In this document: piece after piece, positions 316 through 22,600 of the stretch
Numbering within the stretch: the first letter of the stretch is position 1
How the letters are laid out: each line of letters opens with the position of its first letter
Source: Calditrichia bacterium
Lineage (GTDB): Bacteria > Calditrichota > Calditrichia > RBG-13-44-9 > J075
Reading direction: 5' to 3'
Assembly (NCBI GenBank): GCA_050633245.1
Contig: JBOEGD010000022.1
Span: 1 to 64,000 of the forward strand
Length of the DNA stretch: 64,000 bases
Translations under genes and position numbers: made by a program
The notes under the pieces: model-generated
Seen by the model: the letters and a program-made list of their open reading frames with translations, nothing else
Databases searched by the model: none
What the model was told of the DNA's origin: nothing

Positions 316-1404
316 TTATTTCAATGCCCCTACTACAGTCGCTAAATGCATCCAGTTGTCGCCCAGCCAGTTTTTCAGTTTTTCAATAGGTGATCTCAGC
401 TCTGCTTTGTAGCTCTCAAAAGCATCTTCTTCGCGAATAAGGTTTATTGCAGTGGCAATCTCCTCGTCAATTTCACTACGGAGTGGATTTTCAAGTTCGA
501 TAAACTCGTTTGCTGTTTCCAGTGCCTTTTTTGTTTTAATGGTGTTTGCCTGGCTCAACTGCATTTTAGCCAGAATGTCCTTTATCTCTTTCAGACAGAG
601 TTTTGCTTCTTCCAGAGATCCCGCAGCCGGCGGCGCTGTATTATTATGTGAGCTGTGAGTAACGGTGTTTTTATCGCCAGTAATCAAAACGCTGCCGGAT
701 ACATTCCCGCCAACAGAGATGTTGCGATTGTTTGTGATACTCTGCCCTACTTCCTGTCCGTCGGTTTTATTATTCTGTTCATTCTCTTTTGCCATTGTTG
801 CCTCCCGCTGCTTGAATGTTTTAAGCAGCTCATCGTTTTTTATGATATTAATTTTTTCACTACCCGATAGCTCAATATTCTTAACAGCTTTTTTACCGAG
901 TTGACAAGCATTTTCAATATCCTTTCCGGCAGCAAGGGCATTATAAAAGCCCTCAGAGAACGCGATAGCCACTTCGTTTTCAAGTCTCCGATCAGAGCCA
1001 ATAACATAGGGAACATGATCAATGAGAATCTTTGCAGTTGGGTCGGTCCAACAAGCGTTGAGCACAATACAGCAAATATTTCCGTTTGCGTCAATTATGT
1101 CTATCAATTCAGTGAATTTATCTGCGCTTATCGGATTGGCGATACGTTCAGTATCCATAAAAAAAAGCCCCTGCTCGAAGTCGCCATGTCCGGAGAAATG
1201 AAGGATGTATGGTAGCTGTCGGTTCATTTCATTCTGCAGCTTTTGCATATTGACGCTCAATATAGGTGGGCGCAGGCTATATGGATTGCTGTTTAAACGA
1301 GAATCGAGCTGCTGATTAATACGATCATACTCCACATCAAAATGCGGGTCACCCTTGCCAATCGGATTGGCGGCTATAAACAAAACTGATTTATCTCTGC
1401 TCAT
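316..1404 (-). CDS. CHAT-domain (caspase-like) protease with the shared 22-aa motif and a C-terminal helical domain
   Basis: LFIAANP start, HFSGHG (catalytic His) and VLNAC (catalytic Cys), AIAFSEGFYNAL; motif RNISVGGNVSGSVLITGDKNTV at aa 227-248. Confidence 0.9.
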   Translation of the reverse strand: MSRDKSVLFIAANPIGKGDPHFDVEYDRINQQLDSRLNSNPYSLRPPILSVNMQKLQNEMNRQLPYILHFSGHGDFEQGLFFMDTERIANPISADKFTELIDIIDANGNICCIVLNACWTDPTAKILIDHVPYVIGSDRRLENEVAIAFSEGFYNALAAGKDIENACQLGKKAVKNIELSGSEKINIIKNDELLKTFKQREATMAKENEQNNKTDGQEVGQSITNNRNISVGGNVSGSVLITGDKNTVTHSSHNNTAPPAAGSLEEAKLCLKEIKDILAKMQLSQANTIKTKKALETANEFIELENPLRSEIDEEIATAINLIREEDAFESYKAELRSPIEKLKNWLGDNWMHLATVVGALK

Positions 1405-1423
1405 ATGTTATCCTCGTTGTAGT

Positions 1424-2395
1424 TCAAGCGTTTAATAATTCCTGCATTTTTTCATGAAAAGCCGAAGCCACCTTGAAAGCGCCTTCATCACTGGGATGAA
1501 TTTCATCTTCCCAAAGCTCTTTTATTGGCAGAAGCGGTCGGGCATCGACGTAATCAAACTTATCCGGAAAGAGTTCTTTTAGAGACTGCATGACTTGCTC
1601 GCGGAAGTCGTCGATAATGATCTTAACGATATTCGGTCGCATCTCTTCCGGTATGTTGCGGTCATCGAAATGCTTTGCCATCCAGCCGCCGCGCTTTTTA
1701 CCGGCGTAACTATAGGTATGTCCGATAATCTGTACGCCCGGATGTGTTGAGAGCACCTGCTCGATTATATCACTATAGTGATTGCGTAATTTAGCCAGGC
1801 TGTGGTTGAGGCGCTCACGTTTAATCAGGTTTTCCGGTGGCTCTCCTGCTGAATAATCTTTAATGTGCTCCGGAAATTCATCACCGATTACATCGTTTCC
1901 ACCCGCGCTCAGCAGGAAAAACCGGGGTTGGGTTCTTTCAATAATCGTAACATACTCCGCGATGTTCACCATGTCGATAATTGTGTCTCCGGCAGCACCG
2001 AGGCTGCGAATGGCGTACTCATCAAAGCGCTGATCGTCTATAAGGTGATCGATCACATCGCAAATCAGCGGATGCTGAAACCAGGAATCGCCCTCTGAAA
2101 CCACCATTAATGATTCTGGTCTGCGGATCAGCTGCTCGCGCAGCTTGGCCAACCTTTGCCGCCGTTTCCAGGAATTGGCCAGTCGCATTAGCATCGACAT
2201 AATGCCGCCGCCAACTCCGCCGCGATATCCGCCGCCGGAGTCATCCAACAGCTCTACATCGTCACGCAACACCAGCGTGGGGCACATCTGCCCCTCACGG
2301 GTGGATAATTCAAAATATTCAAGCAGCTTTTCTTCGCTAAGATCTTTTTTGAGCAGCAGGTCTTCCAATTCGGAAACGCGAATTTGTTTCGGCAT
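1424..2395 (-). CDS. SGNH/GDSL-family hydrolase with an N-terminal extension
   Basis: Block I EGDSWF, block III SAGGND, block V DEIHP. Confidence 0.85.
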   Translation of the reverse strand: MPKQIRVSELEDLLLKKDLSEEKLLEYFELSTREGQMCPTLVLRDDVELLDDSGGGYRGGVGGGIMSMLMRLANSWKRRQRLAKLREQLIRRPESLMVVSEGDSWFQHPLICDVIDHLIDDQRFDEYAIRSLGAAGDTIIDMVNIAEYVTIIERTQPRFFLLSAGGNDVIGDEFPEHIKDYSAGEPPENLIKRERLNHSLAKLRNHYSDIIEQVLSTHPGVQIIGHTYSYAGKKRGGWMAKHFDDRNIPEEMRPNIVKIIIDDFREQVMQSLKELFPDKFDYVDARPLLPIKELWEDEIHPSDEGAFKVASAFHEKMQELLNA

Positions 2396-2698
2396 AGTTT
2401 TCCCCTCCGGGCTAAAAGGTGTGGCAATTATTTTGCCTGCTTTACCAGCGAAAAGTAGCGACTTAAAACATCTGTTGATAAAGCATGGTGCGCTTCTTAC
2501 TAGAGGGGAGTATTGTTTTAATTACGCAAAAAAATATGTCGAGTTCAAGATTGGTGTAAAAAATTTCAGTATTGGGGATTATGATGCGGTGAATCAGTAG
2601 ATTCTTTGTTGAATCTTGCAGTATTGTTGTTATCTTTTTAAACAACTCCCCTTGATCTATTCAAATTGTTATTGCATGAACCTTTCTCAGGAGCCGCT

Positions 2699-5600
2699 AT
2701 GCCTGAACCGTTAACGATTTCCATTGCCGGCGGCATCATTAGTTCACTGGCAGCCAACATGCTGCAAAATGCCGGCGTAAAACTACGCAAAGCTATTCGC
2801 AAGTCCGGTCAGGAAGAGGCGTTGCGTCGCTGTACTCAAGCGGGGGTGGCAGCTTTCCTCGGAGTTATCAAAACCAACAGTCAGGAAGAAATTGACCATC
2901 TGGATACTATCTTCCGCGCTTTTTTTGAGAAACCGGACGTTGCCGAGGAGCTGGCAATGTTGCTGGAGGGCGAGCTGCCGGATGAAGAGGCTTTGCTGAA
3001 ACAGTTCGAGCAAGCCGGGTTTATCGCAGAACAACTACCGGGACTGGATTTTGAAGTATCCATGTCTGCATTTCAGCAAACCTTTATTGCCTCTGCGGCC
3101 GGAGAAGGAGAGCTGGCAGGCAATATCCAGGCGCTGAACCTGATAAAACAGAGCAAAATCCAAAACGAGTCACTTGAGACCTTGAAGCAAATTTCAGCAG
3201 TCCTCAAGTCCCTTAAAGAAGACACGCTACAGATGGCTTCCGGCAAGATTACCGGCAGCATTGCGGAAACCGGGCAGGAAGGCGGGGTAGATTTTACGCA
3301 GCAACTGCGGCCCTATTTTTCCGGAATGACTTCAGAAAACTCCAGCCGGTCAGTTACTATTGGTGGCGATGTTCAGAAAAGCATTATTATTACCGGGGAC
3401 AGGGCCAAGGTAGACGCATTTTTCAACTTTGGAAACTATTATGCTACCTCAAATGAGGCAACTGCTTCCGAAGACAATTCTACCGCTACACGAGTCCGCT
3501 ACCTGAACAGCCTAATCAACCATTGCCAAACTCTGCCGCTAGCTGCGCTGGGTGAAAACGTGACGCTGAAGGAAGAGATTACTCTTGATAAAGTGTACGT
3601 CGGTCTGGATACCACCACTATGCAAGAGCTTACTGATAGTGAACGCAAGGTGTTATCAGAAAAATCTGGGCGGGAGATAGAGAAAGATGCTAAACGTCCA
3701 ACAACCGCTCTGGAAGCAGCAGAAGGCAACGACCGGCTGGTGCTGCTCGGTGATCCCGGTGCCGGCAAGAGCACTTTTGCAAAGCAGCTTTGTGTGCAGT
3801 TGGCAACGGCTGCACTGGAACGTGGAGACGAGGTTAGCCTGCCAGTTTTTATAAATCTGCGTGATCTCGCTGCGAAGCTCAAAACCGATTCCTTAAAAAA
3901 GTTATCTGCCAGTGACCGTACCATTGAGCTGCGGCGTTTAATGACAGAACAGATACAGCGCTCATTCGCCGAATTGGAAAGTGAGGAATTTGGGGAGACT
4001 TTTTTAAAAGGAATTCAGAATGCGAAATGTCTGCTGGTATTAGACGGCCTCGATGAGGTGCCTTTTGACAAACGCGAATCGATGCGGGATTTGGTGGGCG
4101 AATCCTGTGCGTATTTTAAGCTGCAAAAACTGTTAATTACCTGCCGGGTTCGCAGTTATAGCGACGCCAGCCACTTCGATGGTTTTGCAAGCTATACATT
4201 GGCGCCGTTTAATGCCGATAAGATTCGCAACTTTATCCGCGGTTGGTATCTGGCGCAGCAGAGTATGGGACGAATTGTAGCGGCTCAGATTGAGGACAAG
4301 ATTGAAGACCTTGCTAAAGCGGCTCTTGAGGGTTCGCTGAAAGAGATTGCCGGCAACCCGATGCTGTTGACCACGATGAGCATTATCCACCAGCGTGATA
4401 TTGGCCTGCCGGATCGCCGGGTAGAGCTGTATAAATTAGCCGTGGAGGTTCTACTGCATCGCTGGCGGGAACATCAGGCCGGGGATCAACTTGGTATATC
4501 CGATGAATTAAGAGATTTTCTGCGCGATGATAGTCGTTTGCGTCCCATGATTGAACGTTTAGCTTACGAAGCTCACAGACCACAGCTACACAATCAATAT
4601 TCCGGTAGTTTGGATCGTGGAACTGCATTGGTGTTACTGGGGGATAATTATCTTGGTGGGGTAGATTTAGCTGATCAATTCTTAGACTATATTGATCAAC
4701 ACTCTGGTCTCTTCGTTGGTGAAAGCGGGGAGCCAGGCAGGGTGTTGACCTATGGTTTCCCACATCGAACTTTCCAAGAATATCTGGCTGGTTGCTATTT
4801 GGTATCTCAACGTGATCTGGTACGACAGATACTTTTTCTCGCTGAAGAAGGGGACTATTGGAGTACTGCATTGCAGCTGGGTTTTGAGGAGTTGCGCTAT
4901 AATCGTCGAAGTGATAACCAGCTATTAGATCTTGCCTATCAACTTTGTAGCAGTGAATCTGCGAAAACAGCTGTAGTAGAGCGTCAGCACTTGTGGTCGT
5001 CTAACATTGCAAAACTACTAGGAACTCAAAAAATAGAACAGGACAAGTCAATATCATGCGGCGGAGCAGTTTATTTGAAGCGAATCCGTGCTGCTTTGGT
5101 AAACCGTTTATCTGGCTCTCTCCCATCTGTAGAGCGCATGCAAGCAGGAAATAACTTGGCATTATTAGGTGATCCACGTTTGGGAATAACAACTGTGGAT
5201 GGTATAGAGTTTTGTTATGTACCAGAAGGTCCGTTTGGATATCGTGATCGGGAAAGCCCCAGCCTACTTTCTGTTTACTGGCTTAGCAGATATCCAATTT
5301 CGAATGCACAGTATAATATCTTTATTAAAGAAAAAGGCTATAAAAACCCTAATTATTGGGAGGAAGCAATTGATGCCAAAGTTTGGAATGCTGGGGTGGT
5401 TAAAGGTCGCTATGAAGAAAAAGCAAGTGCTTTTCCTAGACTTTTTAGAGAAGAGTTTAATTACTCTAATCGCCCCCAGGTTGGTGTTAGCTGGTATGAA
5501 GCAATCGCTTTTTGTCGTTGGCTCACTGAATTAAGTCACAAAAAAAAGTGGCTAAGTCAAGATCTTCGAATTGACCTGCCTACTGAATTTCAATGGGAAA

Positions 5601-6070
5601 AATCTGCTTTAGGGGGAAGGAGTATTAATAATCAGGCAATAATTTTACCCTTAAGGGAGCTCAGAGAGAATGAAACGGAAACCCTTTTGTTAGGGGCTCA
5701 AAAAAACCCGATGCCTCATAGACTATACCCATGGGGTGAAAAAGTTGACGCAAATGTGGCTAATTGTCGCCAAACGGGTGTAGGAACTACAAGCTCTTTA
5801 GGGTGCTTTCCAAAAGGAATGAGTCCTGTTGGCTGTGAGGAGATGAGCGGTAATGTTTGGGAGTGGTGTCAATCCAAGTTCTGGGGAGGAGGGAGGCTTG
5901 GAGCAGCAAAAGATGGACGAGTGCTCCGTGGAGGTTCATGGCTTAACCATGACTTTAATCTACGTTGCTCCTATCCATATTTTGAATACCCTGATTTACG
6001 TAAAAATTTTATTGGTTTCCGTGTTGGGGTTTTTCCGGTTGGGGGACAGGGTAGATCGGAGATGACGTGA
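2699..6070 (+). CDS. NACHT NTPase + C-terminal FGE-sulfatase (CLec-fold) domain, with an N-terminal helical domain and the shared motif
   Basis: Start moved to ATG 2699 (AGGAG SD). Walker A GDPGAGKST, Walker B LVLDGLDE, GNPMLLT, FPHRTFQEY; FGE motifs LPTEFQWEK, MSGNVWEW, RGGSW, GFR. Confidence 0.9.
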   Translation: MPEPLTISIAGGIISSLAANMLQNAGVKLRKAIRKSGQEEALRRCTQAGVAAFLGVIKTNSQEEIDHLDTIFRAFFEKPDVAEELAMLLEGELPDEEALLKQFEQAGFIAEQLPGLDFEVSMSAFQQTFIASAAGEGELAGNIQALNLIKQSKIQNESLETLKQISAVLKSLKEDTLQMASGKITGSIAETGQEGGVDFTQQLRPYFSGMTSENSSRSVTIGGDVQKSIIITGDRAKVDAFFNFGNYYATSNEATASEDNSTATRVRYLNSLINHCQTLPLAALGENVTLKEEITLDKVYVGLDTTTMQELTDSERKVLSEKSGREIEKDAKRPTTALEAAEGNDRLVLLGDPGAGKSTFAKQLCVQLATAALERGDEVSLPVFINLRDLAAKLKTDSLKKLSASDRTIELRRLMTEQIQRSFAELESEEFGETFLKGIQNAKCLLVLDGLDEVPFDKRESMRDLVGESCAYFKLQKLLITCRVRSYSDASHFDGFASYTLAPFNADKIRNFIRGWYLAQQSMGRIVAAQIEDKIEDLAKAALEGSLKEIAGNPMLLTTMSIIHQRDIGLPDRRVELYKLAVEVLLHRWREHQAGDQLGISDELRDFLRDDSRLRPMIERLAYEAHRPQLHNQYSGSLDRGTALVLLGDNYLGGVDLADQFLDYIDQHSGLFVGESGEPGRVLTYGFPHRTFQEYLAGCYLVSQRDLVRQILFLAEEGDYWSTALQLGFEELRYNRRSDNQLLDLAYQLCSSESAKTAVVERQHLWSSNIAKLLGTQKIEQDKSISCGGAVYLKRIRAALVNRLSGSLPSVERMQAGNNLALLGDPRLGITTVDGIEFCYVPEGPFGYRDRESPSLLSVYWLSRYPISNAQYNIFIKEKGYKNPNYWEEAIDAKVWNAGVVKGRYEEKASAFPRLFREEFNYSNRPQVGVSWYEAIAFCRWLTELSHKKKWLSQDLRIDLPTEFQWEKSALGGRSINNQAIILPLRELRENETETLLLGAQKNPMPHRLYPWGEKVDANVANCRQTGVGTTSSLGCFPKGMSPVGCEEMSGNVWEWCQSKFWGGGRLGAAKDGRVLRGGSWLNHDFNLRCSYPYFEYPDLRKNFIGFRVGVFPVGGQGRSEMT

Positions 6071-6160
6071 GCGGGCGAAGGACGGTGAAAAATTATAGAA
6101 ATAGCAAATTAAGAGCATCAGCTCCAGTGGAGCTGAATAATTGCAACATATGGGGCAAAC

Positions 6161-8881
6161 ATGTCTGCAACTAACTACGGCGATGTAAAAAAATCTGTCA
6201 TTATAACCGGGAACGGCAATTCAGTAACCTTTGTTGTTGATGATTCAACCGAAAAGGCGGCGCAGGCTCGCGCGGCTTATCTGGTTTATATGTTCAATAG
6301 CCTGCGAAAGCTACAGCTTGGTGGTATTGATCGACAAGCAGCGAGTGAGGACAATCCTCAATTAAGCCTTGATGGAATTTACACTGCTTTAATGACCGGC
6401 AGACCCGAATCTCACATGGAAAAGATCGAAGGGGAGAAAAAAGAGGCAAAATTGCTCTCGGTACTGGAAGAGCTGGATGCACAAACAGAACTGGCACTTC
6501 TCGGTGAACCGGGCAGCGGTAAGAGTACTTTTGTGAACTTTCTGGTGCTGTGCCTTACTGGCGAAGCAATTGGGCACCCTCACGCCAATTTACAGGCATT
6601 AACCGAACCGCTGCCAACTACAGAGGATGCCGAGGAGAAGGAAAAAGAGCGTCGCCAAAAGTGGATGCACGGAGCGTTATTACCAGTACGCGTAATACTG
6701 CGCGATTTTGCAAAAGGTGGATTACCTGAAGAAGGACCTGCGACGGCTGACCATCTATGGCAGCATATTCGCAGTACTCTTGAAGACAATCGACAGGGAA
6801 GTTTTGCAGAACACTTGCATGAAGAACTACAGCAGAGTGGTGGACTGATTATGTTGGATGGACTGGACGAGGTCTCCGACCCGGAGCGCGTTCGACCGCA
6901 GATTATTCAGGCAGTTAATGCCTTCAAAAACGCCTATTCCAACTGCCGCTTTCTGGTTACCAGTCGCACCTATGCCTATCAGAAACAGGCGTGGAAGCTG
7001 CCGGGGTTTAAAGAGGCGATTATTCAACCCTTTAATCTGCCTCAAATTACGCAGTTTGTAGATCGTTGGTATACTCATATCGGGGAACTGCGGCAATGGT
7101 CTGTGCAGGATTCACAGGGCAAGGCTGCGGTACTGAAAAGCGCTATATCAGCTAACAGCAATTTACAGCACCTTGCCGATCGTCCGCTGTTGCTGACCTT
7201 AATGGCCAGCCTGCATGCCTGGCGCGGTGGTACTCTGCCGGATAAGCGTGAAGAGTTGTATCAGGACTCGGTTGACCTGTTGCTGGATTGGTGGGAACGC
7301 CCTAAAATTGAACACCTGGCTTCCGGGCAGATTCGCGAAGTGCAGCCTGGCATTGCACAGTGGCTGCAGGCGGACAGGGATAAAGTGCGGGACTTGCTGA
7401 ACGAGCTGGCTTATAAAGCGCATGCCGACCAGCAAGATCTGGATGGCTGTGCCGATATTCCGGAAGGGGATTTGGTGCTGGGGCTCATGGACATCAACAA
7501 CAATAAAGATGCAAACACCAAAATGTTAGTTGAATACCTGAGCTTTCGTGCCGGACTGCTGGTTCCGCGTGGGCAGCGAGTTTACAGCCTTCCACACCGC
7601 ACCTTTCAGGAGTATCTTGCGGCCTGCCATTTGACGGCTGATGACGACTATCCGCTTTCTTTGGCAGATCTTGCGCGCGCCGAACCGAATCGCTGGCGGG
7701 AGGCGGTAATGCTGGCGGCAGCCAAGGCCTGGCGGGGCGCGCGTTCCTCTATTTGGGGATTGGTAGATGCGCTCTGTTATGCCCCACCTAAGGACTCCGA
7801 TAATGCAGAAGCCGATATCTGGGGGGCACACCTGGCGGCTCAGGCGTTGGTGGAAGTTGCCGACTTAAGTCAGGTCTCGGCTCGTCAACAGCCAAAAGTG
7901 GAGCGATTGCGAGAATGGCTGTTGCGCTTAATGCGGGAAGACTGGCTTCCTCCCATCGAACGAGCTCTTGCCGGACGTAATCTAGCCAAGCTGGGTGATC
8001 CGCGGCCGGAGGTGATGACGCTGGAGGGTATGCAGTTTTGTTATGTTCCGGGCGGGCCGTTTATCTACCAGGGAGAAGAAAACGACTCTCTTTCCGAGGG
8101 CTTTTGGCTGGGACGCTACCCGGTCAGTAATGTGCAGTATCAGGAATTTGTAAAAGCAGGTGGGTATGCGAATCCTGCCTATTGGTCAGAGGCGGCTAAG
8201 GCTGGTTTGTGGGAAAACGGGCGGTTCAAGGGCAAATATGAAGATCATGCGACATCTGCCCCAAGGATTTTTGGCGAGCCATTTGATTTAGCAAATCATC
8301 CACAGGTTGGCTTTAGCTGGTATGAGGCTGTAGCATACTGCCGTTGGCTGACGGATTATGGCCGGGAGCAGGGCTGGATCGATAAAAAAAGCTGCTTTGT
8401 TTTACCTTCTGAGTTTCAATGGGAGAAAGCAGCTCGTGGTGGGGATCAAATTGGGGTCGAACCCATATTCATCAAGCTTGAGGAATTAAAAGATAAAAGA
8501 GGTGCTGCTGCAAAGCAGGAGTTAATTGCCAACCCCAATTACCGTCGGGAGTATCCGTGGGGAGATGAACTTACTTTAAACCTTGTGAATTGCAGCGATT
8601 CCGGCATTGACAGCACGAGTGCACTTGGGTGCTTTACGAGTGGAGTGGGTCCGCTCGGTATCGAAGAGATGGCAGGAAATGTTTTTGAGTGGAGTCTATC
8701 GAAATGGGGCGGTGACGTAGAAATAGATGCTAGCGGTAATGCCCGCGTTATTCGTGGCGGCTCGTGGGGCGCCATTGATGACCTCAACCGTTGTTCCGCT
8801 CGCCTGAGCTTCAATCCGTTCGACCGTTACGACCTCATCGGTTTTCGTATTGGTCTCTTCCCATCTTCGAAGAATGGGTGA
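6161..8881 (+). CDS. NACHT NTPase + FGE-sulfatase domain, paralog of the upstream gene; starts directly with the shared motif
   Basis: Walker A GEPGSGKST, Walker B IMLDGLDE, RPLLLT, PHRTFQEY; LPSEFQWEK, MAGNVFEW, RGGSW, GFR. Confidence 0.9.
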   Translation: MSATNYGDVKKSVIITGNGNSVTFVVDDSTEKAAQARAAYLVYMFNSLRKLQLGGIDRQAASEDNPQLSLDGIYTALMTGRPESHMEKIEGEKKEAKLLSVLEELDAQTELALLGEPGSGKSTFVNFLVLCLTGEAIGHPHANLQALTEPLPTTEDAEEKEKERRQKWMHGALLPVRVILRDFAKGGLPEEGPATADHLWQHIRSTLEDNRQGSFAEHLHEELQQSGGLIMLDGLDEVSDPERVRPQIIQAVNAFKNAYSNCRFLVTSRTYAYQKQAWKLPGFKEAIIQPFNLPQITQFVDRWYTHIGELRQWSVQDSQGKAAVLKSAISANSNLQHLADRPLLLTLMASLHAWRGGTLPDKREELYQDSVDLLLDWWERPKIEHLASGQIREVQPGIAQWLQADRDKVRDLLNELAYKAHADQQDLDGCADIPEGDLVLGLMDINNNKDANTKMLVEYLSFRAGLLVPRGQRVYSLPHRTFQEYLAACHLTADDDYPLSLADLARAEPNRWREAVMLAAAKAWRGARSSIWGLVDALCYAPPKDSDNAEADIWGAHLAAQALVEVADLSQVSARQQPKVERLREWLLRLMREDWLPPIERALAGRNLAKLGDPRPEVMTLEGMQFCYVPGGPFIYQGEENDSLSEGFWLGRYPVSNVQYQEFVKAGGYANPAYWSEAAKAGLWENGRFKGKYEDHATSAPRIFGEPFDLANHPQVGFSWYEAVAYCRWLTDYGREQGWIDKKSCFVLPSEFQWEKAARGGDQIGVEPIFIKLEELKDKRGAAAKQELIANPNYRREYPWGDELTLNLVNCSDSGIDSTSALGCFTSGVGPLGIEEMAGNVFEWSLSKWGGDVEIDASGNARVIRGGSWGAIDDLNRCSARLSFNPFDRYDLIGFRIGLFPSSKNG

Positions 8882-9469: not shown

Positions 9470-10540
9470 ATGTATCGAGAATTCAATCGTATGATCCTGA
9501 CTATGACAATTGTGCTATTTGTTGGGAATAATATTTTGATCGCTGACGAAACGTCTAAAGATAAAAAGATAAACGTTTATGTGTGGGATTTTGATGCAAA
9601 ACCTCCTGAGGACTTGAACGCGCAAGAATTCGCAAAGAGCGTTACCGAAGAAATTGAAGAGTTGCTGATCAAAAGCAACATGTTTCGTGTCTTAAATAGG
9701 CGTGAGTATTGGAATTTCTTTACGCAGCGAGAGCAAGAGTCTGGCATTAAAGGAATCGATCACTTTAACGAAAAGATGATTGATACTCTCAAGTCCATTA
9801 ATGCAGAATATGTCGTTTTTGGTAAGGTTGACTATAATGAACCTAGTGGACAAGTGAAGCTTCAAGCTTCCCTGCAAAATTTTAACTCGGAGAAGGTAGC
9901 TCAGGCAACAGAGTATGGTGCAAGGAAACTCAGCTTGGACCCAGAAGAACGAGTAAAGTTGGTAGCTGCACTTGTTAAACCTATACTTTCAAAAGTAAAA
10001 AAGCTCCAATCAAATGAAAGCGATAATAAGAGTTCTTCTTTCTTTTCGGCAAATAGTTGGAATAACGATAGGTTTACAATTAGGTTTGGGTCAACGGCTG
10101 AAAGGAGAGCTTTTTTGACTGGTGTAAGATTAGTCGTTGAACCGCATATAGGAATAGCTCCGTTCCAAAAAGACATTACAAAGCTGCGTATAGAGGGATT
10201 TAAAGACCTTTTAAAGGTGGGGCTTGAAACAAATCTATACCATGGTTTTCTTGCTTTGCAAGTTGGGTTTGTTCTGCCGAGCGAACTCAATTTTGTTGAA
10301 GAAAGTGATGTCGCGGGTGGGTTGTATCTTGTAGATAGGTCGACATACATAGTTGATTCTAAATTGAGTTTCACTGTAGGTTTCTCATTCTTTAACGGCA
10401 TTGTTGCCGCTAATTATACTAGGATAGGATTTGATAATAAAGCCTTCGACTCAATTTATGATGGACCTTTAAACCAAAAGTTAATTCTTTTTAGCATACA
10501 ACCACTTTCGTTGATTCGTTTAGCAGTTAAGAGCTTATAA
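9470..10540 (+). CDS. Exported protein, N-terminal CsgG/TolB_N-like domain plus a beta-rich C-terminal region
   Basis: Signal peptide; INVYVWDFD...FRVLNRR...REQESGI...AEYVVFG pattern; GGAGG SD; paralogous N-terminus to 14164. Confidence 0.55.
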   Translation: MYREFNRMILTMTIVLFVGNNILIADETSKDKKINVYVWDFDAKPPEDLNAQEFAKSVTEEIEELLIKSNMFRVLNRREYWNFFTQREQESGIKGIDHFNEKMIDTLKSINAEYVVFGKVDYNEPSGQVKLQASLQNFNSEKVAQATEYGARKLSLDPEERVKLVAALVKPILSKVKKLQSNESDNKSSSFFSANSWNNDRFTIRFGSTAERRAFLTGVRLVVEPHIGIAPFQKDITKLRIEGFKDLLKVGLETNLYHGFLALQVGFVLPSELNFVEESDVAGGLYLVDRSTYIVDSKLSFTVGFSFFNGIVAANYTRIGFDNKAFDSIYDGPLNQKLILFSIQPLSLIRLAVKSL

Positions 10541-12966: not shown

Positions 12967-13198
12967 ATGCTTAAAATTGGAGCCAGGGAGCTTTAGGAGT
13001 AAATTTTCTATAGTTGTTGTATCTATTTAAACTAGTGGCGTATCTGCGTATGTTTATTCAAAATTTCCCCGCAAATGGTGAGCTCTAATATTTCCGTATG
13101 GGCTTCGCTCAAGTAATTGTTCGCATTGTTCTTGACGTCCATAAACTAAGTAATGCTTTGTATACCGTCTCTTTTGTAATTAGGTGAACTGAGAATCT

Positions 13199-14152
13199 AT
13201 GTCTGATAAAATACTAAATGAATTAGTTCATGCAATTCTTTCTTTGCCCGGCGTTAATGCCCCGCAAATGCTTCAAAGTATTGTGGAATCTTTGCCGAAG
13301 CAGGTTCAGGAAGCTATATCGCAGAGTGAGAATCATGATATGCGAGGTATTGTGCAGGCGTGTTCGAAGCAAGATAAACTTGATGATTTGATACAGGCTT
13401 TGAGAACAATGTTTGGAGAGTCAGCCTCATATCAACAGCTTGTAGAATTGCAAACTGCCTGGGAATCAGATCGAGAGTATGACATCTCGAAAACAGACCG
13501 CTCTGCGGGAGTTGATGGAAATGTCTCTGATTCCGTTATCATTACCGGGGATAATAACAAAGTCTACTCTGGAAATATAAATAAGCTAGACTTGCCAGAT
13601 CATGAGGAGAATGATGGAAAGTTTAAGGCAACGGCTCACAGGATCCAAATAATTACACTCGTTATTGCGATCTTGGCTATAATCACCCCGCTCTTATATG
13701 ACTACCTAATCAAACAACCTGATGTCGCACTATTGCCCGTAAATACTAGAGATGGTATGGTTGTTAAGGAAGATCAGCCTCTTGAAACTTTTGATTCTCC
13801 TGCTCAGGATGTAGACCTGCCTACAGAAAACAATAATCCTAAGTCATTTGGAAACAAAGCTCAGAAGCAGGAAGACCCTGTGAAAGAGCGGGATAAGGCT
13901 TCAGGTTCAACGAAACCTGAGGTCAATATACCTAAGATAAATCTAAAACTAATTGTTCCAAACCCAATGCGTAATGGCCGTGTTCTTGTAAATGGCGCAG
14001 AGCATTATACAAGACCTAACACCATAATTAAGTCTATTAACGTTGTTCCCGGAAGGCATGAAATTCTGATTGTTACGAAAACAGATACTTGTAGAGCAGC
14101 GGGAGTGTTTATAGAAGACGGTAAGACTATACCGGTGGATTTTGTAGAATAA
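13199..14152 (+). CDS. EAD2-like effector-associated domain + shared motif + single TM helix + extracytoplasmic linker and PEGA-like beta domain
   Basis: N-terminal LVHAILSLP...SIVESLP...IVQAC...LDDLIQALRTMFGES resembles the EAD2 consensus; motif RSAGVDGNVSDSVIITGDNNKV; TM IQIITLVIAILAIITPLLY. Confidence 0.6.
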   Translation: MSDKILNELVHAILSLPGVNAPQMLQSIVESLPKQVQEAISQSENHDMRGIVQACSKQDKLDDLIQALRTMFGESASYQQLVELQTAWESDREYDISKTDRSAGVDGNVSDSVIITGDNNKVYSGNINKLDLPDHEENDGKFKATAHRIQIITLVIAILAIITPLLYDYLIKQPDVALLPVNTRDGMVVKEDQPLETFDSPAQDVDLPTENNNPKSFGNKAQKQEDPVKERDKASGSTKPEVNIPKINLKLIVPNPMRNGRVLVNGAEHYTRPNTIIKSINVVPGRHEILIVTKTDTCRAAGVFIEDGKTIPVDFVE

Positions 14153-14163
14153 TAGGAGGGGAA

Positions 14164-15207
14164 ATGTATCAACATCTCAATAACATATACTTGTTTTTGA
14201 TGTTTATCCTGTTTTTGGGGAATACTACTCTGATCGCTGATCAGCAATCAAAAGTCGAAAAAATAAATGTTTATGTCTGGAATTTTGATGCCAAGTCTAC
14301 AAATTCTAAAGCTCTGGCAAATGATGTAACGGAAGAGTTTGAGGAGGCATTGATCAATAGTCATACCTTCCGTGTATTAGATAGACGTAACTTTTCGAAG
14401 GTTTTTACACAGCGAGAGCAAGAGGCTGGTATAAAAGGGATTGAGGGCTTTAATGACAAGATGTTTGACACGCTAAAATCTTTAAATGCAGAATATATCG
14501 TTTTTGGAGAAGTAGATTTCGAAGACCCCAGTGGGGAAATAAAGTTCAGAGCTTATTTGCAAAATCTCGATACAGAAATTATTGCAAAAAAAACACTCCA
14601 TGGCGCGAGGGCACTTCGTCTGGCACCGAAGACTCGTATGAAGTTAATCGGAACCTTAGTTGATTCAATAATTTGTCAGTCAACGGCCAAATTAGACTTG
14701 GAGTTTGATGATGAGTCAAAATATTCCAAACAAGGAAAAAGATGTGGCTTTTCTGTCAAAATAAACCCTCCAGATTTTGATGTTGGAAATGATCTGATGT
14801 GGCAATCTATTCTATTACCTGGTTTGGGACATATTCTGGACAATAAAAAGCGCGGATATGTTTATACGACTGCATTTATTGCATCTGCCATTTTCTCTGT
14901 GACTTCAGCCATACGTTACAATAGTAAGCTGGATGAATTAAAAGATGCGAACTCTATATTCGATTCAGATCGAAACATCACGAATGCCTTGGTAAAAAAC
15001 AAGAAAATTGAGGAAATAAACGATGCTGAGAATTTGGTAAATACTTCTCTATATATCTTTGGAGGGCTTTATGTTGTAAATCTAACCGATGTAATTTTCT
15101 CTACTTGGCTTAATAAACCAGCCCCTGAAGTACAACCGATAGTTACTTTCCCCAACTCCCCGCAATTACAATCAAACCCTATGTATGGTATAAAAATAAG
15201 TTGGTGA
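14164..15207 (+). CDS. Exported protein, CsgG/TolB_N-like domain + DUF5683-like C-terminus
   Basis: Signal peptide; FRVLDRR...REQEAGI; SILLPGLGH motif followed by hydrophobic helices; GGAGG SD. Confidence 0.55.
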   Translation: MYQHLNNIYLFLMFILFLGNTTLIADQQSKVEKINVYVWNFDAKSTNSKALANDVTEEFEEALINSHTFRVLDRRNFSKVFTQREQEAGIKGIEGFNDKMFDTLKSLNAEYIVFGEVDFEDPSGEIKFRAYLQNLDTEIIAKKTLHGARALRLAPKTRMKLIGTLVDSIICQSTAKLDLEFDDESKYSKQGKRCGFSVKINPPDFDVGNDLMWQSILLPGLGHILDNKKRGYVYTTAFIASAIFSVTSAIRYNSKLDELKDANSIFDSDRNITNALVKNKKIEEINDAENLVNTSLYIFGGLYVVNLTDVIFSTWLNKPAPEVQPIVTFPNSPQLQSNPMYGIKISW

Positions 15208-15212
15208 GGAAT

Positions 15213-17117
15213 ATGAAAAAAGCTCTGCAAATGATCGTAATCTGCACTCTTGTTCTGGCTTGTTCAACAGATCCTGATCTTACGAAAAGTGAAGATGTTG
15301 AACCGGATATAGTAACAGATATTGATGGAAATGAATACCAAACGATTCAAATCGGGTCTCAGGTTTGGATGGCAGAAGATTTAAGGGTTACTCGCTATCG
15401 AGATGGAACTAAAATTTTAAATCTTATCGATAGCTCCGATTGGTCTTCGACTCAGGAGGGAGCCTATGCGAGTTATGAAAACAATGATGCTAATGGTGTT
15501 GAATTCGGTTTGCTCTATAATGGTCTTGCAGTTGAAGATGTAAGAAATATTGCACCCGAGGGCTGGCGAGTGCCGACGGATAAAGACTGGAAAATACTGG
15601 AAACTCATCTGGGAATTAGCATTGAAGAGCTGGATGTCGCTTCAGCAAGGGGGGCTTTTGAAGGAGGGATGTTGAAGGAGATAGGAACTTCACATTGGAA
15701 TAATCCTAATGTCGGTGCAACAAACGAGACTTTTTTCACCGCTCGCCCCGGAGGACAGAGACAGGATGACGGCTCTTACGATGGTTTAGGACTGATAGGC
15801 TGGTTTTGGTCTGTAACTCGGATACAGGGAGGTACAAACTTGTGGCAACGAACCCTGCAAAATGACAATGCTCAAATTGGACGCGGGGTAAATAGCCCTC
15901 AACATGGCAGGTCTATTCGCTGTATTAAAGAAACCGCCGGACCGGCGGGATCCCCCTTGCAAGAGGATAAAATCACTCCATTTGATGCCTTAGTTAATAA
16001 TCGTTTTGGTCACGCCGTATCGATAGATGGTTCCTTTTTAGCTGTGTCGGCAATTAGTAATGATCGAAGAGGACCTGCCGCAGGTTCTGCTTACATTTTT
16101 GAACGCGTGACTTCTGGCTGGAGTGAGAAACTACAACTGTTACCAGATTTGCTTGAGCCCGGTGATGAGTTGGGGCGCTCTATCGGCTGTGGAGACGGTT
16201 GGGTAATCGTTGGGGCGGATGGAGACGACGATCGAGGTAAAAATGCTGGTGCAGTTTATATCTATCGTAATGCTACAAGTGGATGGGAATTCACTCAAAA
16301 GCTTACCGCACCGAATGGTGCTCCAGATGATCGATTTGGGGTGTCATGTGCTATAAATAATCAGTGGGCAGTTGTTGGAGCTTTTGCACAAGATAGTATT
16401 GCAATGAATAGCGGCTCCGTTTATATATATCGCTACAATACTGGAGCGCAGAACTGGGGTTTTGACAGAGAAATAGTTGCGCCAACTGCGAGAGAGGGAG
16501 CAATTTTTGGAAACGCTGTAAGCTTATCAGGAAATCAGATAGTAATCGGAGCTAGCATGGATGATGAGCTTGGAGATCAAGCCGGAGCCGCTTATGTTTT
16601 CGAACATGAAGTAAATGAATGGAGCTTTAAAGGCAAGTTAGTTGCCTCAGATGGTATGTCTGGAGCTAACTTTGGTGCATCCGTAGCTATTGATGGAGAT
16701 GATTTAATTGTTGGTTCTCCCAAATCAGACGGCCAAGGAGATAATGCGGGTTCGATTTACTTCTTCGAAAAGCAAAACAATGTCTGGCAAGAATCCGGTA
16801 GATATATGGCCTCTTCTCCTGCTGCGTCTGATGAATTTGGCGGTAGAGTAGATATTTCCGGAGAGATAGCTTTAATTGGTAGCACTGGTAAAGATATTAC
16901 TGGCGAGAACTCTGGAGCGGCTTATATCTTTAGAAAAGATGGCGATGGTTGGAAAGAAATTGAAGTAATATGTGCTTCCGATGGAGCAAGTAGCAATAGC
17001 TATGGAGACTATGTGGCAATTGATGGGAATTATGCTGTCGTAGGTGCACCTCAAAGCGCTCATGATGGAGCAAGCTCCGGTATTGTTTATATATATACTC
17101 CTTTGATACAAAACTAG
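15213..17117 (+). CDS. Lipoprotein with a Fibrobacter succinogenes major paralogous (FISUMP) domain + FG-GAP repeat propeller
   Basis: Lipobox VLAC; DIDGNEYQTIQIGSQVWMAEDL...GLLYN...PEGWRVPT...SIRCIK; repeated FG.SVAIDG...VGA...G.AYIF units. Confidence 0.85.
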   Translation: MKKALQMIVICTLVLACSTDPDLTKSEDVEPDIVTDIDGNEYQTIQIGSQVWMAEDLRVTRYRDGTKILNLIDSSDWSSTQEGAYASYENNDANGVEFGLLYNGLAVEDVRNIAPEGWRVPTDKDWKILETHLGISIEELDVASARGAFEGGMLKEIGTSHWNNPNVGATNETFFTARPGGQRQDDGSYDGLGLIGWFWSVTRIQGGTNLWQRTLQNDNAQIGRGVNSPQHGRSIRCIKETAGPAGSPLQEDKITPFDALVNNRFGHAVSIDGSFLAVSAISNDRRGPAAGSAYIFERVTSGWSEKLQLLPDLLEPGDELGRSIGCGDGWVIVGADGDDDRGKNAGAVYIYRNATSGWEFTQKLTAPNGAPDDRFGVSCAINNQWAVVGAFAQDSIAMNSGSVYIYRYNTGAQNWGFDREIVAPTAREGAIFGNAVSLSGNQIVIGASMDDELGDQAGAAYVFEHEVNEWSFKGKLVASDGMSGANFGASVAIDGDDLIVGSPKSDGQGDNAGSIYFFEKQNNVWQESGRYMASSPAASDEFGGRVDISGEIALIGSTGKDITGENSGAAYIFRKDGDGWKEIEVICASDGASSNSYGDYVAIDGNYAVVGAPQSAHDGASSGIVYIYTPLIQN

Positions 17118-17167
17118 AAAGCGATCCACTAGCCTTAGTATTATTTATCATTTAAGTGCAGAAGTGT

Positions 17168-17200
17168 CTTGCCAGGCTCATGCTAAATGAGCCTGGCAAG
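17168..17200. terminator. Hairpin between convergent genes
   Basis: CTTGCCAGGCTCAT-gctaa-ATGAGCCTGGCAAG perfect inverted repeat. Confidence 0.7.
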
Positions 17201-17206
17201 CAAACT

Positions 17207-17956: not shown

Positions 17957-17957
17957 A

Positions 17958-19087
17958 TTATTTCTCCTCCAGAATTGTATCCTTAATGGTGGAATACTTT
18001 TCGATTAATTTAGCGCGGTTGGGAGCACCCCGGTTAAAAGCGATATGAGCACCAAAGCTTGGTCCTTTGTCCTTACCGCCAAACCCATCGTTAAATGTTG
18101 AGAAAGTGAAGTTACCGATTCTTACGCGCAGGCTGCTAAAAAGCTCGTTTAAGGGAGTCTTGGCCTGAAATACTTTGCTTTGATTTCTCCCGTTAAATTC
18201 ATTTATCATTGCCAACTCATCAACGCTTCTGGATTTCACAAAGAATCCATTAGCGTGTGTCATCGCAAATTGAATGAGAATTGGAAATCCTCTGACAGTA
18301 ATGCGAGTACTAATCATCCCCTGAACATTTACGTAATAAGATGTGAGATCATCAAAGTGATATCCGGGCAGCAACAGGCCACCTCTGATCATACCACCGA
18401 CGCCAACAGAGCGAACTCCAACACCATAAACCGAGAATTTACGCGGCAGATATGCTTCCCTCAGGTTTGAGCCGGCATGGAGAAAAAGCTCCTGATTCAC
18501 GGTGTTAAGGCTAAAACCTGCACCGACAAAGAACGGAGACGGAACCGCTTCTTCTACCCGACCCGGTAGCTTACGGCTATAATCGAAGCGCAGAAAATAC
18601 TCTATTGAGAATCCTGCAATCGGTACTTTTTTCGTAGGCCCCAGAGATGTGTTGTTAACAGTGTCGGTCGAATCGCGTGGAATGCGAAGAAGCTGAGAAT
18701 TGCCCCTCCAGTTCGCCCAATGAATCACATCGTTTTGCAGCCATTCCGTAACATAATCGTTGACCACGCCAAATGTGGCGGTTTTTCTTTTTGTTAATGA
18801 CAGATCCTGATTTAAAAAATAGTCCGCGGTTTCAAAGACGCTATACGAAAGAATATTAAAGCCAAGTGTTTCATCGATATCATTATAGGGCGTGAAGCGA
18901 TACGTGTTGGTTCCGGTTAATACTTCCTTGCCGAATTGAGTAAAACCGAGAAAATGAAGTCCAATATCTCTGCGCTCCTCCAGTTCCGGGAGCATAATCG
19001 CCCCCCAATGGAACTTGGACTGACCAACCCCTGAGCAAAACTAAGGAATGTTAAAAGTAAAGTGAATATTAACGTTTTTAGTATCAT
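17958..19087 (-). CDS. Hypothetical exported, beta-rich protein; 5' end split by a 1-bp frameshift
   Basis: 345-aa ORF from 18995. A signal-peptide-like MILKTLIFTLLLTFLSF starts at ATG 19087 (AAGGGGG SD) in another frame; one extra base in the run at 19037-19040 joins them. Confidence 0.6.
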
Positions 19088-19692
19088 TTCAGACCCCCTT
19101 GTTATGTCGCAAATGCACCTGTTTTCTGATTACTTAAAACCGTATGTGTCGTCTATCCTGTAAGACTACATATATGGCTCTGTATGTCATTTACTCATTA
19201 AATATTCTGTAGTGGGGAGAATTTTTCCGGCCTTTGTTGATACCGGTAAATGGGATTTAAAGGGGAGTAGAATACACCAAGAGTTGACAGCGTGATAATT
19301 AAAACCCGTCGAATTTTCTAAATGGAATTCTAAAGCTTTACAACCATTCTTACTCGATGCCTGTATATTTAAATAGAGGCGAATCATCTTGAATTCTCTC
19401 AAAAAACTTTATGTTCTAAGCAGAAAACCATTCATAGCGATCTTCAGAAATAAATAGAAGTGGCTCGAAAATCTGTCACTAAACTATTGGTTATTCATTC
19501 GAATTCCTCTCTGACTATCCCCGCCAAAAAAAGTTGAGTGCAGATCTTACTGACCCTCCCTTGCACAAAATCCTATAAATCTCTATATTTTAGCAAAATC
19601 TCCCCTTGTTAAGCATCTGTTTGGTAAGTGACTTTACCGGCAAATAGACGTATTTATTGCAAACACAGCGACGACTTACGGAAGATGATTCT

Positions 19693-22600
19693 ATGCCGAA
19701 AAACGAACGCAGTATTCAGGTTAAACGGGATGCTTACGAGAATGTCATCATTTCTGGCGATGGTAACCAGGTTACTATTTATCAGACTGTAAAACAGATT
19801 GAGTTAGTTACTGAAACGGCACATACTGATAAGAAAAAACCCGTTGGCCCCAATCCCTACCTGGGCCTGGGGGCTTTCCAAGAGAGTGATGCAGCACGTT
19901 TTTTCGGTCGTGACAAGCTGATTGCCATTCTTTGGGAAAAATTCCGCGATCTGCATACGCCGAACCCTACTGGTGAGCCACCTACCCGCCTGCTACCTAT
20001 CTTGGGACCCTCTGGATCAGGAAAGTCTTCCCTGGCAAAAGCAGGATTGATACCCGAACTAGCCCGCCATCCCTTACAGGGGCGTCAATCCACTCGAGTT
20101 GGTCTGATTACTCCGGGCAGTAAGCCGTTGGAAAGTCTGGCGCTGGTGCTGGCTCGCATCGCAACGAATGATCCTTCGCCTGCACTCAAGCGTGATGAAT
20201 ATCTGGAGGTTCTCTCAGGCCGTGCGCAAAGGGGGGATTATCGCGGGCTCAGCAGCATTGCCGATACCCTGCCGGGAATTGAGAGTAATCCGCTGGTGAT
20301 TTTGGTAGACCAGTTCGAGGAGACTTTCGCCCTTAGTGAGGATGAAGATGAGCGTAATGCCTTTATCGAAAATTTGTTGCAGGCCGTCGCCGACCCTTCA
20401 CAGCGAGTGGCGGTGATCCTAACTATGCGCAGTGATTTTATCGGTGAAACCCAGCAGCATACCGTGCTTAATACGCTGGTAACCCGCCAGGGCGAGCTGG
20501 TACCGGCAATGAACGAAGATGAACTAAGGGATGCAATTGCTAAACCGGCAGAACTGGCTGAGTATCCGCTGGACGAGGCCACCATCAATTTGCTCGTTGA
20601 ACAGACCGAGGGCCGCGAAGGTGCGTTGCCACTATTACAGTTTGCATTGACCCGCATCTGGGATGCGCTGCCGGAAAAAGAGCCGGCGATAACGCTAAAA
20701 GACATTGGTGGGGTTGGCGGTGCTCTTGCCGGGGAAGCGCAACGCTTGTATGATAGCCTTGATCATAAAGGAAAGGCCATTGCCAAACGGGCTTTCCTGG
20801 CGATGGTTCAATTAGGTGAAGGCACCCGCGATACTCGCCGCCGCGTCACGCTGCAGCAGGTAGTCTCGGCATCCGAGGATGAAAACACTGTACGCCAGAT
20901 CCTGCAGCTCTTCTCCCGGCAGGATACTCGCTTGGTAACTCTTTCCGGAGATGATACCGGCGATGCTGTTGAAGTAACCCATGAGGCCTTGCTGAACCAC
21001 TGGCATGAGCTGAATGAATGGTTGGATGCCGGCCGGGACGATCTACGTTTTGCCCGGCGGTTGGAGGCAGCGGCAAAACATTGGCATGAGTCTAATATGC
21101 CAGATGGAATGTTGTGGCGGCCGCCTGATTTGGATTTACTATTAGAATACCATAAGAAGAATAATGAGGGACTAACGGTTTTACAAAATAGTTTTTCTGA
21201 GGCCTCACAAAATGCCGAGCAACGTCGAATCGCAAGTAGAAAAAAGCAACAAAGAATACTGCGTAACTTGGTAGTAGGACTAACTATTGCTATGCTCGTT
21301 ACACTTGGTTTGGCAAATTTTTCACTCCGAAAACAAAAAGAAGCTGAACAGAAAACCTGGGAGGCAAATTTTAATTTGGCACAGATCTTCGAAAGGGATG
21401 CCGGATTTGCCCTTGCGGATGCACTTGAACATAAAGACACTCAACGTAATTTTCAGAAAGCTTGGCTATATACGCTTGCCGCCCTGAATTTGAACATTGG
21501 GCAAGAAAGGCACTTGCCAATTTCGATTGGGCGTTTGGTCCGACCGGAATTGCGTTATGGAACCTGGCATCAAATATGGTCCACACCAAAATTTCTCGGA
21601 AAGGATATAAGGAGCGTGGCTTTTTCACCTGATGGAAAGATGCTCGTTTCAGGCTCAGGTGATAAAATAATACGCTTATGGAATTTAGTGAGTGGCGAAG
21701 AAATATCGACCTTGAGTGGTCATAAAGGTTTTGTAAATAGTGTAGCTTTTTCGCCTGATGGAAAGACGATCGTTTCAGGCTCATGGGATAAAACAGTACG
21801 CTTATGGAAAATTGGAAGTGACCAGGCAATATCCATCATGGGTGGCCATAGTTTTCCTATAAATAGCGTGGTTTTTTCACCTAATGGGAAGATAATTGCT
21901 TCCGGCTCCGATGATAATACAATTCGCCTTTGGGATGTAGAAAATGGTCAGGCAATAACTACCTTTAATGGTCATATCAACCCTATATATAGCATAGTAT
22001 TTTCACCTAGTGGAAAGATACTTGCTTCCGGCTCCGATGATAACACAGTGCGTCTTTGGGATGTGGAAAGTGGCGAAGAAATATCTGTCTTGAGTGGTCA
22101 TGAAAATTCTGTGAATAGTGTAGCTTTTTCACCTGATGGGAAGATACTTGCTTCCGGCTCCGATGATAATACAATTCGCCTTTGGGATGTGGAAAGTGGT
22201 GATGAGATATCCACCATGAGCGGTAATAAGTACTCTGTGAATAGTGTTGTCTTTTCACCTGATGGGAAGATACTTGCCTCTGGAGCTAATACAATTCGTC
22301 TTTGGGATGTGGAAAGTGGTGAAGAGATTTCTGATTTGGGCGATCATCGGCGCTCTGTGAAGAGTGTTGCCTTTTCACCCGATGGGAAGATACTTGCTTC
22401 CAGTGATATTACAGTCCGTCTTTGGGATGTGGAAAATAAAAAGTCAGTATATAATTACGATGGTCATCGTGCTTATGTCACAAATGTTGATTATTCGCCA
22501 GATGGAAAGATTGTTGCTTCTGGTTCTGGTGATAATACAGCGCTCTTGTGGGATGTAGAAAGTGGTGATGAGATCTCTACTTTGATCGGTCATAGTAACT

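Follow-up and report, generated by a model that had tools for sequence, protein, structure and literature searches.

What could a caspase-like protease, a set of NLR-like receptors and a membrane-anchored protein have in common that would make them parts of one signalling system? The question is raised by a stretch of DNA from a Calditrichia bacterium (assembly GCA_050633245.1; genome about 6.35 Mb, 97% complete), namely positions 1 to 64,000 of contig JBOEGD010000022.1, which we here call the window. A first-pass annotation had claimed that five immune-type proteins encoded there share an ungapped motif of 22 amino acids (aa), and had proposed that this motif links the receptors to the protease by amyloid polymerisation. 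The first claim is correct: all five peptides translate exactly from the positions listed below and align without gaps. The second is discussed step by step in what follows. In short, the motif is probably a homotypic signalling adaptor of the kind called BASS; a convergence of all receptors on the protease is plausible.

The consensus of the motif reads RSVxIGGDVxxSVIITGDxNxV. Its five copies in the window are given here with their E-values against a profile hidden Markov model (HMM) built from 94 sequences of other organisms, the foreign-only HMM:

661 to 726, minus strand: motif copy 1, aa 227-248 (of 362) of the CHAT protein, E 2.2e-9
3347 to 3412, plus strand: motif copy 2, aa 228-249 of the receptor NACHT-1, E 8.9e-9
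6161 to 6226, plus strand: motif copy 3, aa 1-22 of the receptor NACHT-2, E 8e-4, aligned from motif position 7
13499 to 13564, plus strand: motif copy 4, aa 101-122 of the EAD2 protein, E 4.6e-8
19708 to 19773, plus strand: motif copy 5, aa 18-39 of the nSTAND1-WD40 protein, E 2.5e-6

The first six positions of the NACHT-2 copy are degenerate, and the copy of the WD40 protein belongs to a divergent subtype that it has in common with a second nSTAND1 protein on contig C6. The annotation had placed the motif at the N-terminus of NACHT-2 and of the WD40 protein and behind the CHAT or EAD2 domain in two others; the Pfam coordinates agree.

In composition, the motif is rich in V (15.8%), G (15.4%), I (12.4%) and N (9.4%), also in S and D, and poor in K (2.6%), L (1.2%) and P (0.4%). 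On the Chou-Fasman scale, strand-prone positions (3, 5, 9, 13-15 and 22) alternate with turns made of G, D and N. Position G17 is invariant, D18 is found in 84 of the 94 foreign copies, and N20 is counted in the invariant G17/D18/N20 region; in NACHT-2 and in a transmembrane (TM) protein encoded on contig C18, N replaces D at position 18. The flanking sequence is polar and unconserved, which marks the element as a short linear motif, not the edge of a domain. There is one copy per protein; arrays do not occur.

An HMM of the five window copies was run against the 72,624 six-frame stop-to-stop open reading frames (ORFs) of the genome. This search, which the annotation had suggested, yielded four further clear copies, all in related contexts, i.e., in STAND NTPases and small membrane proteins; a divergent tenth candidate is added as the last line:

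contig C11: 263-aa protein with a ubiquitin-like N-domain, the motif and a TM segment
contig C18: 266-aa motif-TM-PEGA protein
contig C18: third NACHT-FGE receptor, motif behind an N-terminal helical domain
contig C6: second nSTAND1 NTPase, motif N-terminal
contig C26 (L005:10033-11988), minus strand: LRR-Roc-COR (ROCO) GTPase with a divergent tenth copy, cut by the contig end

The motif-like sequence of the ROCO GTPase ends 9 residues before the stop codon and reaches an E of only 2.3-12 with the motif HMMs; its membership is uncertain. Altogether, the copies are spread over at least five contigs. When single copies were left out of the HMM, four of the five window copies were recovered at E<0.01, the WD40 copy at E=20 and rank 28. 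With the foreign-only HMM, the nine genome copies are the top nine matches (E 2e-9 to 0.022); the next genome match has an E of 0.29, and the best one on reversed sequences 0.81. These sequence comparisons support the view that the motif is a genuine shared adaptor-type module and no compositional accident.

The motif is not confined to this genome. A profile search of 1,835,955,588 representative proteins produced 104 matches at E<=0.001, 7 from the genome itself and 97 foreign ones. A word-indexed protein search with a 40-column alignment retrieved the proteins of the genome and two fragments only, which reflects the limit of word seeding and not rarity. Among 95 foreign proteins with a good motif, it lies within 20 aa of the C-terminus in 38 and within 20 aa of the N-terminus in 36; the remainder consists of 17 internal cases and 4 tiny fragments. 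Many of these proteins are metagenomic fragments, and their lengths are lower bounds. A scatter over random positions in unrelated proteins, which the annotation held to be incompatible with its idea, is contradicted by the terminal placement and by the immune-type partners. The latter were read from a Pfam run on the longer 65 of the 97 foreign proteins, 20 of which were inspected individually. The tally comprises AAA_16 (7), nSTAND1 (5), NACHT (5), nSTAND5 (3), EAD10 (3), caspase (2), CHAT (2) and nSTAND6 (2). The enzymatic architectures are caspase-motif-TIR, caspase-motif, trypsin-motif and motif-CHAT; the NTPases come as motif-nSTAND1-WD40, motif-nSTAND1-TPR, motif-NACHT-FGE and N-domain-motif-NACHT, including N-domain-motif-NACHT-HEAT. 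In the five genomes checked, the number of copies ranged from 1 to 9.

Seventeen of the small foreign proteins belong to a single helical family; their N-terminal helix is hydrophobic, and the motif makes up their last residues. Sequence searches of Pfam, NCBIfam and PDB do not name this family. Viral contigs gave 45 pattern matches, no relative of the small helical motif protein among them.

This family led to the gene pairs. An alignment of eight of its sequences, searched against species-representative genomes, found 114 relatives in 78 loci, mostly of Chloroflexota, also of Acidobacteriota, Actinomycetes, Cyanobacteria (Fischerella, Tolypothrix) and one Methanotrichaceae archaeon. Of the 78 loci, 35 contain two or more motif ORFs. 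Informative are the 49 loci that have an ORF with a C-terminal motif and at least 300 nt downstream: in 21 of them a second motif on the same strand begins -150 to +600 nt after the stop, and within 63 nt in 15. The classic pair consists of a small helical protein with the motif at its end and, behind it, a large NTPase that begins with the motif. Encoded downstream are nSTAND5-TPR, NB-ARC-TPR and AAA_16 proteins; a caspase-motif-TCAD2 protein stands ahead of a 1360-aa motif protein in one of the loci. Cognate motifs, which are 41-68% identical, resemble each other more than non-cognate ones do (55.8% versus 51.3% identity). None of 5000 permutations reached the observed value, a significance that is overstated by the common descent of the loci.

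A related arrangement was seen in Fischerella muscicola PCC 7414 (L055:7899-12115), where a Bell-like protein of 147 aa ends in a divergent motif. The gene 132 nt behind encodes a 1213-aa protein with a helical leader and the motif, and the same holds for a Tolypothrix tenuis plasmid (L061). The 1213-aa partner was considered as an archetype of EAD10-TPR-GreA/B-C-PIN proteins; it matches AAA_16 only, and the idea was dropped.

How does this compare with what is called BASS? Passages of Dyrka et al. 2020 (bioRxiv 10.1101/2020.01.06.895854) describe BASS as gapless motifs of ~25 residues common to an effector, at its C-terminus, and an NLR, at its N-terminus, as encoded by adjacent, usually collinear (91%) and often overlapping genes, and as rich in G/N/V/I(/Q) and poor in P/L/K. 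Partners with CHAT and TIR domains are mentioned there and, likewise in part of the text, by Ibarlosa et al. 2024 (bioRxiv 10.1101/2024.11.07.622273). The motif family at large shows the same picture: ~22 aa that a small helical protein has at the C-terminus and a NACHT, NB-ARC or other STAND NTPase at the N-terminus, in adjacent genes, with an occasional CHAT or TIR partner. Its composition corresponds as well, apart from Q, the expected enrichment of which was not seen in the motif family (Q 1.7%). Terminal placement, gene pairs and composition together are the reason why we read the window motif as a BASS-type adaptor. The wider family bears the hallmarks of amyloid signalling sequences in bacteria as to terminal positions, adjacent effector/NLR gene pairs, caspase, CHAT, TIR and STAND partners and composition; amyloid formation itself we infer. 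The odds appear to us somewhat in favour of a homotypic adaptor of the BASS kind that works by a receptor-templated cross-beta mechanism.

Such a mechanism would run as follows. A ligand would drive the oligomerisation of a receptor and thereby gather its motif copies. The gathered motifs would fold into a stacked beta-arch, i.e., a cross-beta nucleus, which would recruit partners bearing the same motif and template it there. The CHAT protease would then be activated by induced proximity, and clusters of the membrane proteins would form at the inner membrane.

Several observations weigh against this reading. In three of the five window proteins (CHAT, NACHT-1 and the EAD2 protein) the motif is internal. 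The CHAT gene diverges from that of NACHT-1 at a distance of 1.26 kb, the lipase gene lying in between, and an adjacent collinear receptor is lacking. Within the genome the motif identities are low (18-63%). The Pfam models of RHIM, HET-s and PP do not match the motif segments even at E<=10, nor does any PDB chain match the motif by sequence, the best being a phage tail spike with an E of 0.29. The agreement between foreign and own sequences is partly circular, since the foreign ones were selected by a profile of the genome itself; their contexts played no role in the selection. Finally, neither 40 relatives (E<=0.01) nor 85 further genomes from the phylum (E<=0.001) yielded the motif, which leaves the local network without comparative support among its kin. 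The motif is, as judged from sequence, not wholly foreign to the lineage: NACHT-2 has homologues in relatives, and the closest one carries a degenerate motif.

The motif might also be an adaptor without being an amyloid. It would then be a miniature EAD that acts, according to the 'EAD principle' of Kaur et al., by discrete, stoichiometric beta-sheet augmentation and not by open-ended templating. We consider this rather unlikely. In its favour, in six of six foreign proteins whose coordinates were compared, the motif occupies positions ~41-64, the beta half, of the 77-position Pfam profile of EAD10 (PF19954), and a section of Kaur et al. 2020 (PMC7159879) presents EAD10 as a small adaptor of mixed alpha+beta type. 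The dispersal of copies over the genome is typical of EADs, as far as the pertinent part of Kaur et al. 2021 (PMC8195603) goes, and the internal placement in three window proteins would also suit an EAD. However, 22 residues between unconserved polar flanks are too small for a globular domain, many copies lack a helical leader, and composition and strand/turn pattern fit the BASS descriptions. Moreover, the Bab/Agp system, which has its architecture in common with EAD10-type systems, signals through amyloid, as stated in the part of its description cited below.

Two other explanations fare worse. One may think of a recognition or cleavage site, or a degron, for CHAT, with a cut, e.g., after the conserved Asp of TGD that releases or activates the carriers. 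A caspase-fold protease is indeed encoded in the locus, caspase and trypsin domains recur among the foreign motif proteins, and G17 is invariant and D18 nearly so. Yet the protease itself bears the motif, position 18 is N and not D in NACHT-2 and in the C18 TM protein, most foreign pairs consist of a small helical protein and an NTPase without any protease, and conservation over 22 residues with hydrophobic strands exceeds what a cleavage site needs; the idea is very improbable. The notion of an incidental low-complexity linker or single beta-solenoid turn devoid of a signalling role can draw on the sub-threshold similarities in Pfam, which are all to beta-solenoid-type repeats (DUF3060, E 6e-4; Gp5_C, 0.015; FapA, 0.045; Curlin_rpt, 0.13). 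It is hardly credible any more and already largely refuted by the genome-wide specificity, with nine matches, then a gap to E 0.29, and 0.81 in the reversed control, by the single copy per protein instead of arrays, and by the terminal position, the pairing of genes and the confinement to proteins of immune type.

If, then, the motif is a BASS-type adaptor, which proteins does it connect in this organism? The carriers are five STAND NTPases (three NACHT-FGS and two nSTAND1 proteins, FGS standing for the FGE-sulfatase sensor), one CHAT protease and three single-pass membrane proteins, plus the divergent form on the ROCO GTPase. Which copies pair, and that the motif activates CHAT, is presumed from the analysis. 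CHAT is the sole enzyme among the motif-bearing proteins that are not NTPases, which favours the idea of the annotation that CHAT is the output, and a convergence of all receptors on this protease is plausible. Against it speak that the CHAT motif is 40-45% identical to those of the receptors, which is the bottom of the cognate range, that NACHT-1 has an N-terminal helical domain of its own, and that the three motif-bearing membrane proteins could equally be outputs. In these three the motif adjoins the membrane. Two of them are paralogues, and each is followed by a paralogous CsgG-like lipoprotein, which points to an envelope-associated module, possibly a sensor or an effector.

An even more ambitious scheme can be drawn. 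One prion-like motif would wire a genome-wide, many-to-many immune network, in which five STAND receptors, the ROCO GTPase and the envelope-anchored TM-PEGA/CsgG-like cassettes all nucleate or join a common cross-beta hub that activates the CHAT protease and the operon-linked lipase. As a whole, this is doubtful. If true, it would amount to a supramolecular organising centre of bacteria, comparable to the inflammasome, the membrane-anchored copies being envelope sensors or the site where the polymer assembles.

The genes of the window concerned are the following:

316 to 1404, minus strand: short CHAT (caspase-like) protease with the motif and a C-terminal helical region of ~110 aa; Pfam CHAT 25.8 bits (cut-off 24)
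1424 to 2395, minus strand: GDSL/SGNH lipase-like gene, no motif; Pfam Lipase_GDSL_2 34.5 bits
2666 to 6070, plus strand: NACHT-1, with NNH2 helical domain, motif, NACHT and FGS sensor (Pfam)
6161 to 8881, plus strand: NACHT-2, with the motif at the extreme N-terminus, NACHT and FGE-sulfatase (Pfam); sole in-frame ATG at 6161
13199 to 14152, plus strand: EAD2 domain (aa 10-84), motif, hydrophobic helix and PEGA-like C-terminal domain; Pfam EAD2 27.8 bits
14164 to 15207, plus strand: CsgG-like lipoprotein, 11 bp downstream of the EAD2-motif gene; Pfam CsgG 24.8 bits
19657 to 24420, plus strand: motif, nSTAND1, hydrophobic helix (by eye) and ~20 WD40 repeats; Pfam nSTAND1 351.5 bits, WD40

The CHAT protein has its HFSGHG and LNxC, the catalytic His and Cys motifs, which are invariant in 10 of 10 aligned sequences. 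Homologous short CHAT proteins have EAD7, EAD8, EAD11 or TIR in place of the motif, which accordingly occupies an adaptor slot. Residues 249-362 (window 316-660, minus strand) align weakly, with 22-27% identity, with three stand-alone foreign proteins (P0015, P0062 and P0097). These are small and are built from a pseudo-repeat rich in Gly, the motif and a helical tail similar to that of CHAT. Motif and C-terminal helical domain may, by this likeness, be a separate module. The lipase-like gene is situated 19 bp upstream of CHAT, on the same strand and between CHAT and NACHT-1, and its product is a possible co-effector.

In both NACHT-1 and NACHT-2 the NACHT domain is combined with an FGE-sulfatase (121 and 120 bits, respectively). 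The layout of NACHT-1, an NNH2 or other N-domain followed by motif and NACHT, recurs in the foreign proteins P0016 and P0044. From its second Met on (window 2699-2760), NACHT-1 has a short segment containing Pro and Glu and then a Gly-containing hydrophobic helix. By eye, this start resembles the 'MEPIS'-motif region that part of the text of Ibarlosa et al. ascribes to the N-termini of Bab, Bell domains and some antiphage NLRs. Homologues of NACHT-2 are present in 11 of 40 relatives, with differing N-termini. The closest orthologue (53% identity; relative G010, L096:1228-4314) has two N-terminal TM helices and the degenerate motif, which lacks the GD..N signature; another one (L097) has a helical N-domain and no motif. 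Evidently, the N-terminal modules of this receptor family are swapped.

The EAD2 protein and the C18 motif-TM-PEGA protein are paralogues (E 4e-16), and the latter matches Pfam PEGA; in the EAD2 protein the TM helix and the likeness to PEGA were judged by eye and by this paralogy. Its EAD2 domain (window 13226-13450) is the only one in the genome and, by the 'EAD principle', has no partner here. It is therefore the motif, and not EAD2, that the protein has in common with the NTPases. The CsgG-like protein next to it is 38% identical over 136 aa (E 5e-27) to the one encoded at L002:7563-8522, behind the C18 motif-TM-PEGA gene. The repeated order of a motif-TM-PEGA-like gene and a CsgG-like lipoprotein gene (window 13199-17117; L002:6386-8522) suggests a conserved cassette. 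In the window it continues with an overlapping gene for a Fib_succ_major and FG-GAP protein. A third CsgG-like paralogue was recognised by eye at 9470-10540, where the Pfam search gave no match.

As to the nSTAND1-WD40 gene, the true start is likely the ATG at 19693; a metagenomic orthologue fragment (P0013) begins just ahead of the motif. Both nSTAND1 proteins (window ~21280-21350; C6, L004) show, by eye, a TM-like hydrophobic stretch between the NTPase and the repeats, so that the WD40 or repeat sensor may face the outside of the cytoplasm. An anomalous base composition of the island was not seen: its genes have 39-52% GC, the genome 45%.

The C11 protein deserves a word of its own. Its N-domain is ubiquitin-like or YukD-like by a structural match in the Atlas; the motif, the TM segment and a C-terminal domain follow. 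The gene is flanked on both sides by TIR_2 genes, with a TRADD-like N domain in addition in one of the two, and the region (L001:6009-10691) looks like a second conflict island.

Is the motif already catalogued, a question that the annotation had left open? In part. It overlaps with the beta half of some members of EAD10. However, the genome copies score below EAD10: the nine 40-aa motif segments do not match its model even at E<=10 (the gathering threshold being 24.1 bits), and an EAD10 search of the whole genome gave one unrelated match of 12.3 bits only. Also, unlike EAD10, the genome copies have no helical leader. The canonical EAD10 of Fischerella (100 bits) has a different, shorter beta part without profile similarity to the motif. 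No model in Pfam, NCBIfam or PADLOC names the motif, and a full-text search of the accessible literature for its strings found none. Read from sequence, the motif family is a widespread one that is canonically paired elsewhere and partly captured by EAD10.

The receptors themselves have well-described relatives. Like the STAND-FGS systems in the part of Kaur et al. 2021 (PMC8195603) concerned with them, NACHT-1, NACHT-2 and the third paralogue on C18 combine a NACHT NTPase with a C-terminal FGS sensor, and an N-terminal adaptor recurs on separate effectors in several copies per genome; here this adaptor is the motif. Many FGS systems are said in the same part to be associated with a diversity-generating retroelement. 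Such a diversification of the FGS domains is ruled out here: the genome (97% complete, as mentioned) contains no RVT_1 and no template repeat, and the last 500 nt of the three FGS genes (window 5571-6070 and 8382-8881; C18:79673-80172) match only themselves in the genome.

Among amyloid signalling systems, the Bab/Agp pair is the one experimentally worked-out bacterial case that we met in the literature surveyed. Its BASS11 motif forms amyloid and is needed for abortive infection, as documented in the part of Ibarlosa et al. 2024 (bioRxiv 10.1101/2024.11.07.622273) dealing with this pair. Like the present motif, BASS11 as described there comprises ~20 aa at the C-terminus of the effector and the N-terminus of the receptor and has four glycine breakers. 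If D99 of Bab is equated with D18, T85, G88, S89, V90, D99 and N100 fit motif positions 4, 7, 8, 9, 18 and 19, whereas I87 and Q92 differ from the residues most often found at positions 6 and 11; this mapping relies on residues named in the text and not on the E. coli sequence, and is a lead only. The motif may be BASS11 of the Bab/Agp system. The partners differ: the receptor is here a STAND NTPase and there, in the same account, a protein of the TPR-GreA/B-C-PIN type; the effector is here a protease or a membrane protein and there a Babybell domain. In contrast to the Bell/NLR pairs, the copies of the window genome are dispersed, three of the five in the window are internal, TM-PEGA proteins and NACHT-FGS receptors are among the partners, and none of the motif-bearing proteins is Bell-like or of the small helical kind.

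In essence, the finding illustrates well a system of a known kind and is not a new principle. Unusual is the large, dispersed set of motifs in one genome of a phylum in which searches otherwise gave no match; unusual are also the placement of the motif inside proteins, partners of the NACHT-FGS and TM-PEGA types and the lack of a Bell-like executor. Nine to ten copies of one motif on receptors with FGS-lectin and WD40 sensors, on a CHAT protease with intact catalytic residues and on membrane proteins make this genome a compact test-bed for the specificity of templating, for the sharing of one effector by several receptors, and for a protease, instead of a pore-former, being switched on by amyloid templating.

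The proposed logic is that of the fungal NWD2/HET-S system and of the mammalian RHIM necrosome, in which, according to the portion of PMC7889193 on these systems, an oligomerised receptor nucleates a beta-arch motif that templates the effector. The comparison also joins two literatures. Agp-type proteins are regarded as the archetype of EAD10 systems, with EAD10 as the adaptor of TPR-GreA/B-C-PIN systems, in a section of Kaur et al. 2021 (PMC8195603); TPR-GreA/B-C-PIN is the very architecture of Agp, the N-terminal motif of which is BASS11 in the cited part of the preprint 10.1101/2024.11.07.622273. In some EAD10 adaptors, the beta half and the BASS-type motif appear to be one object.

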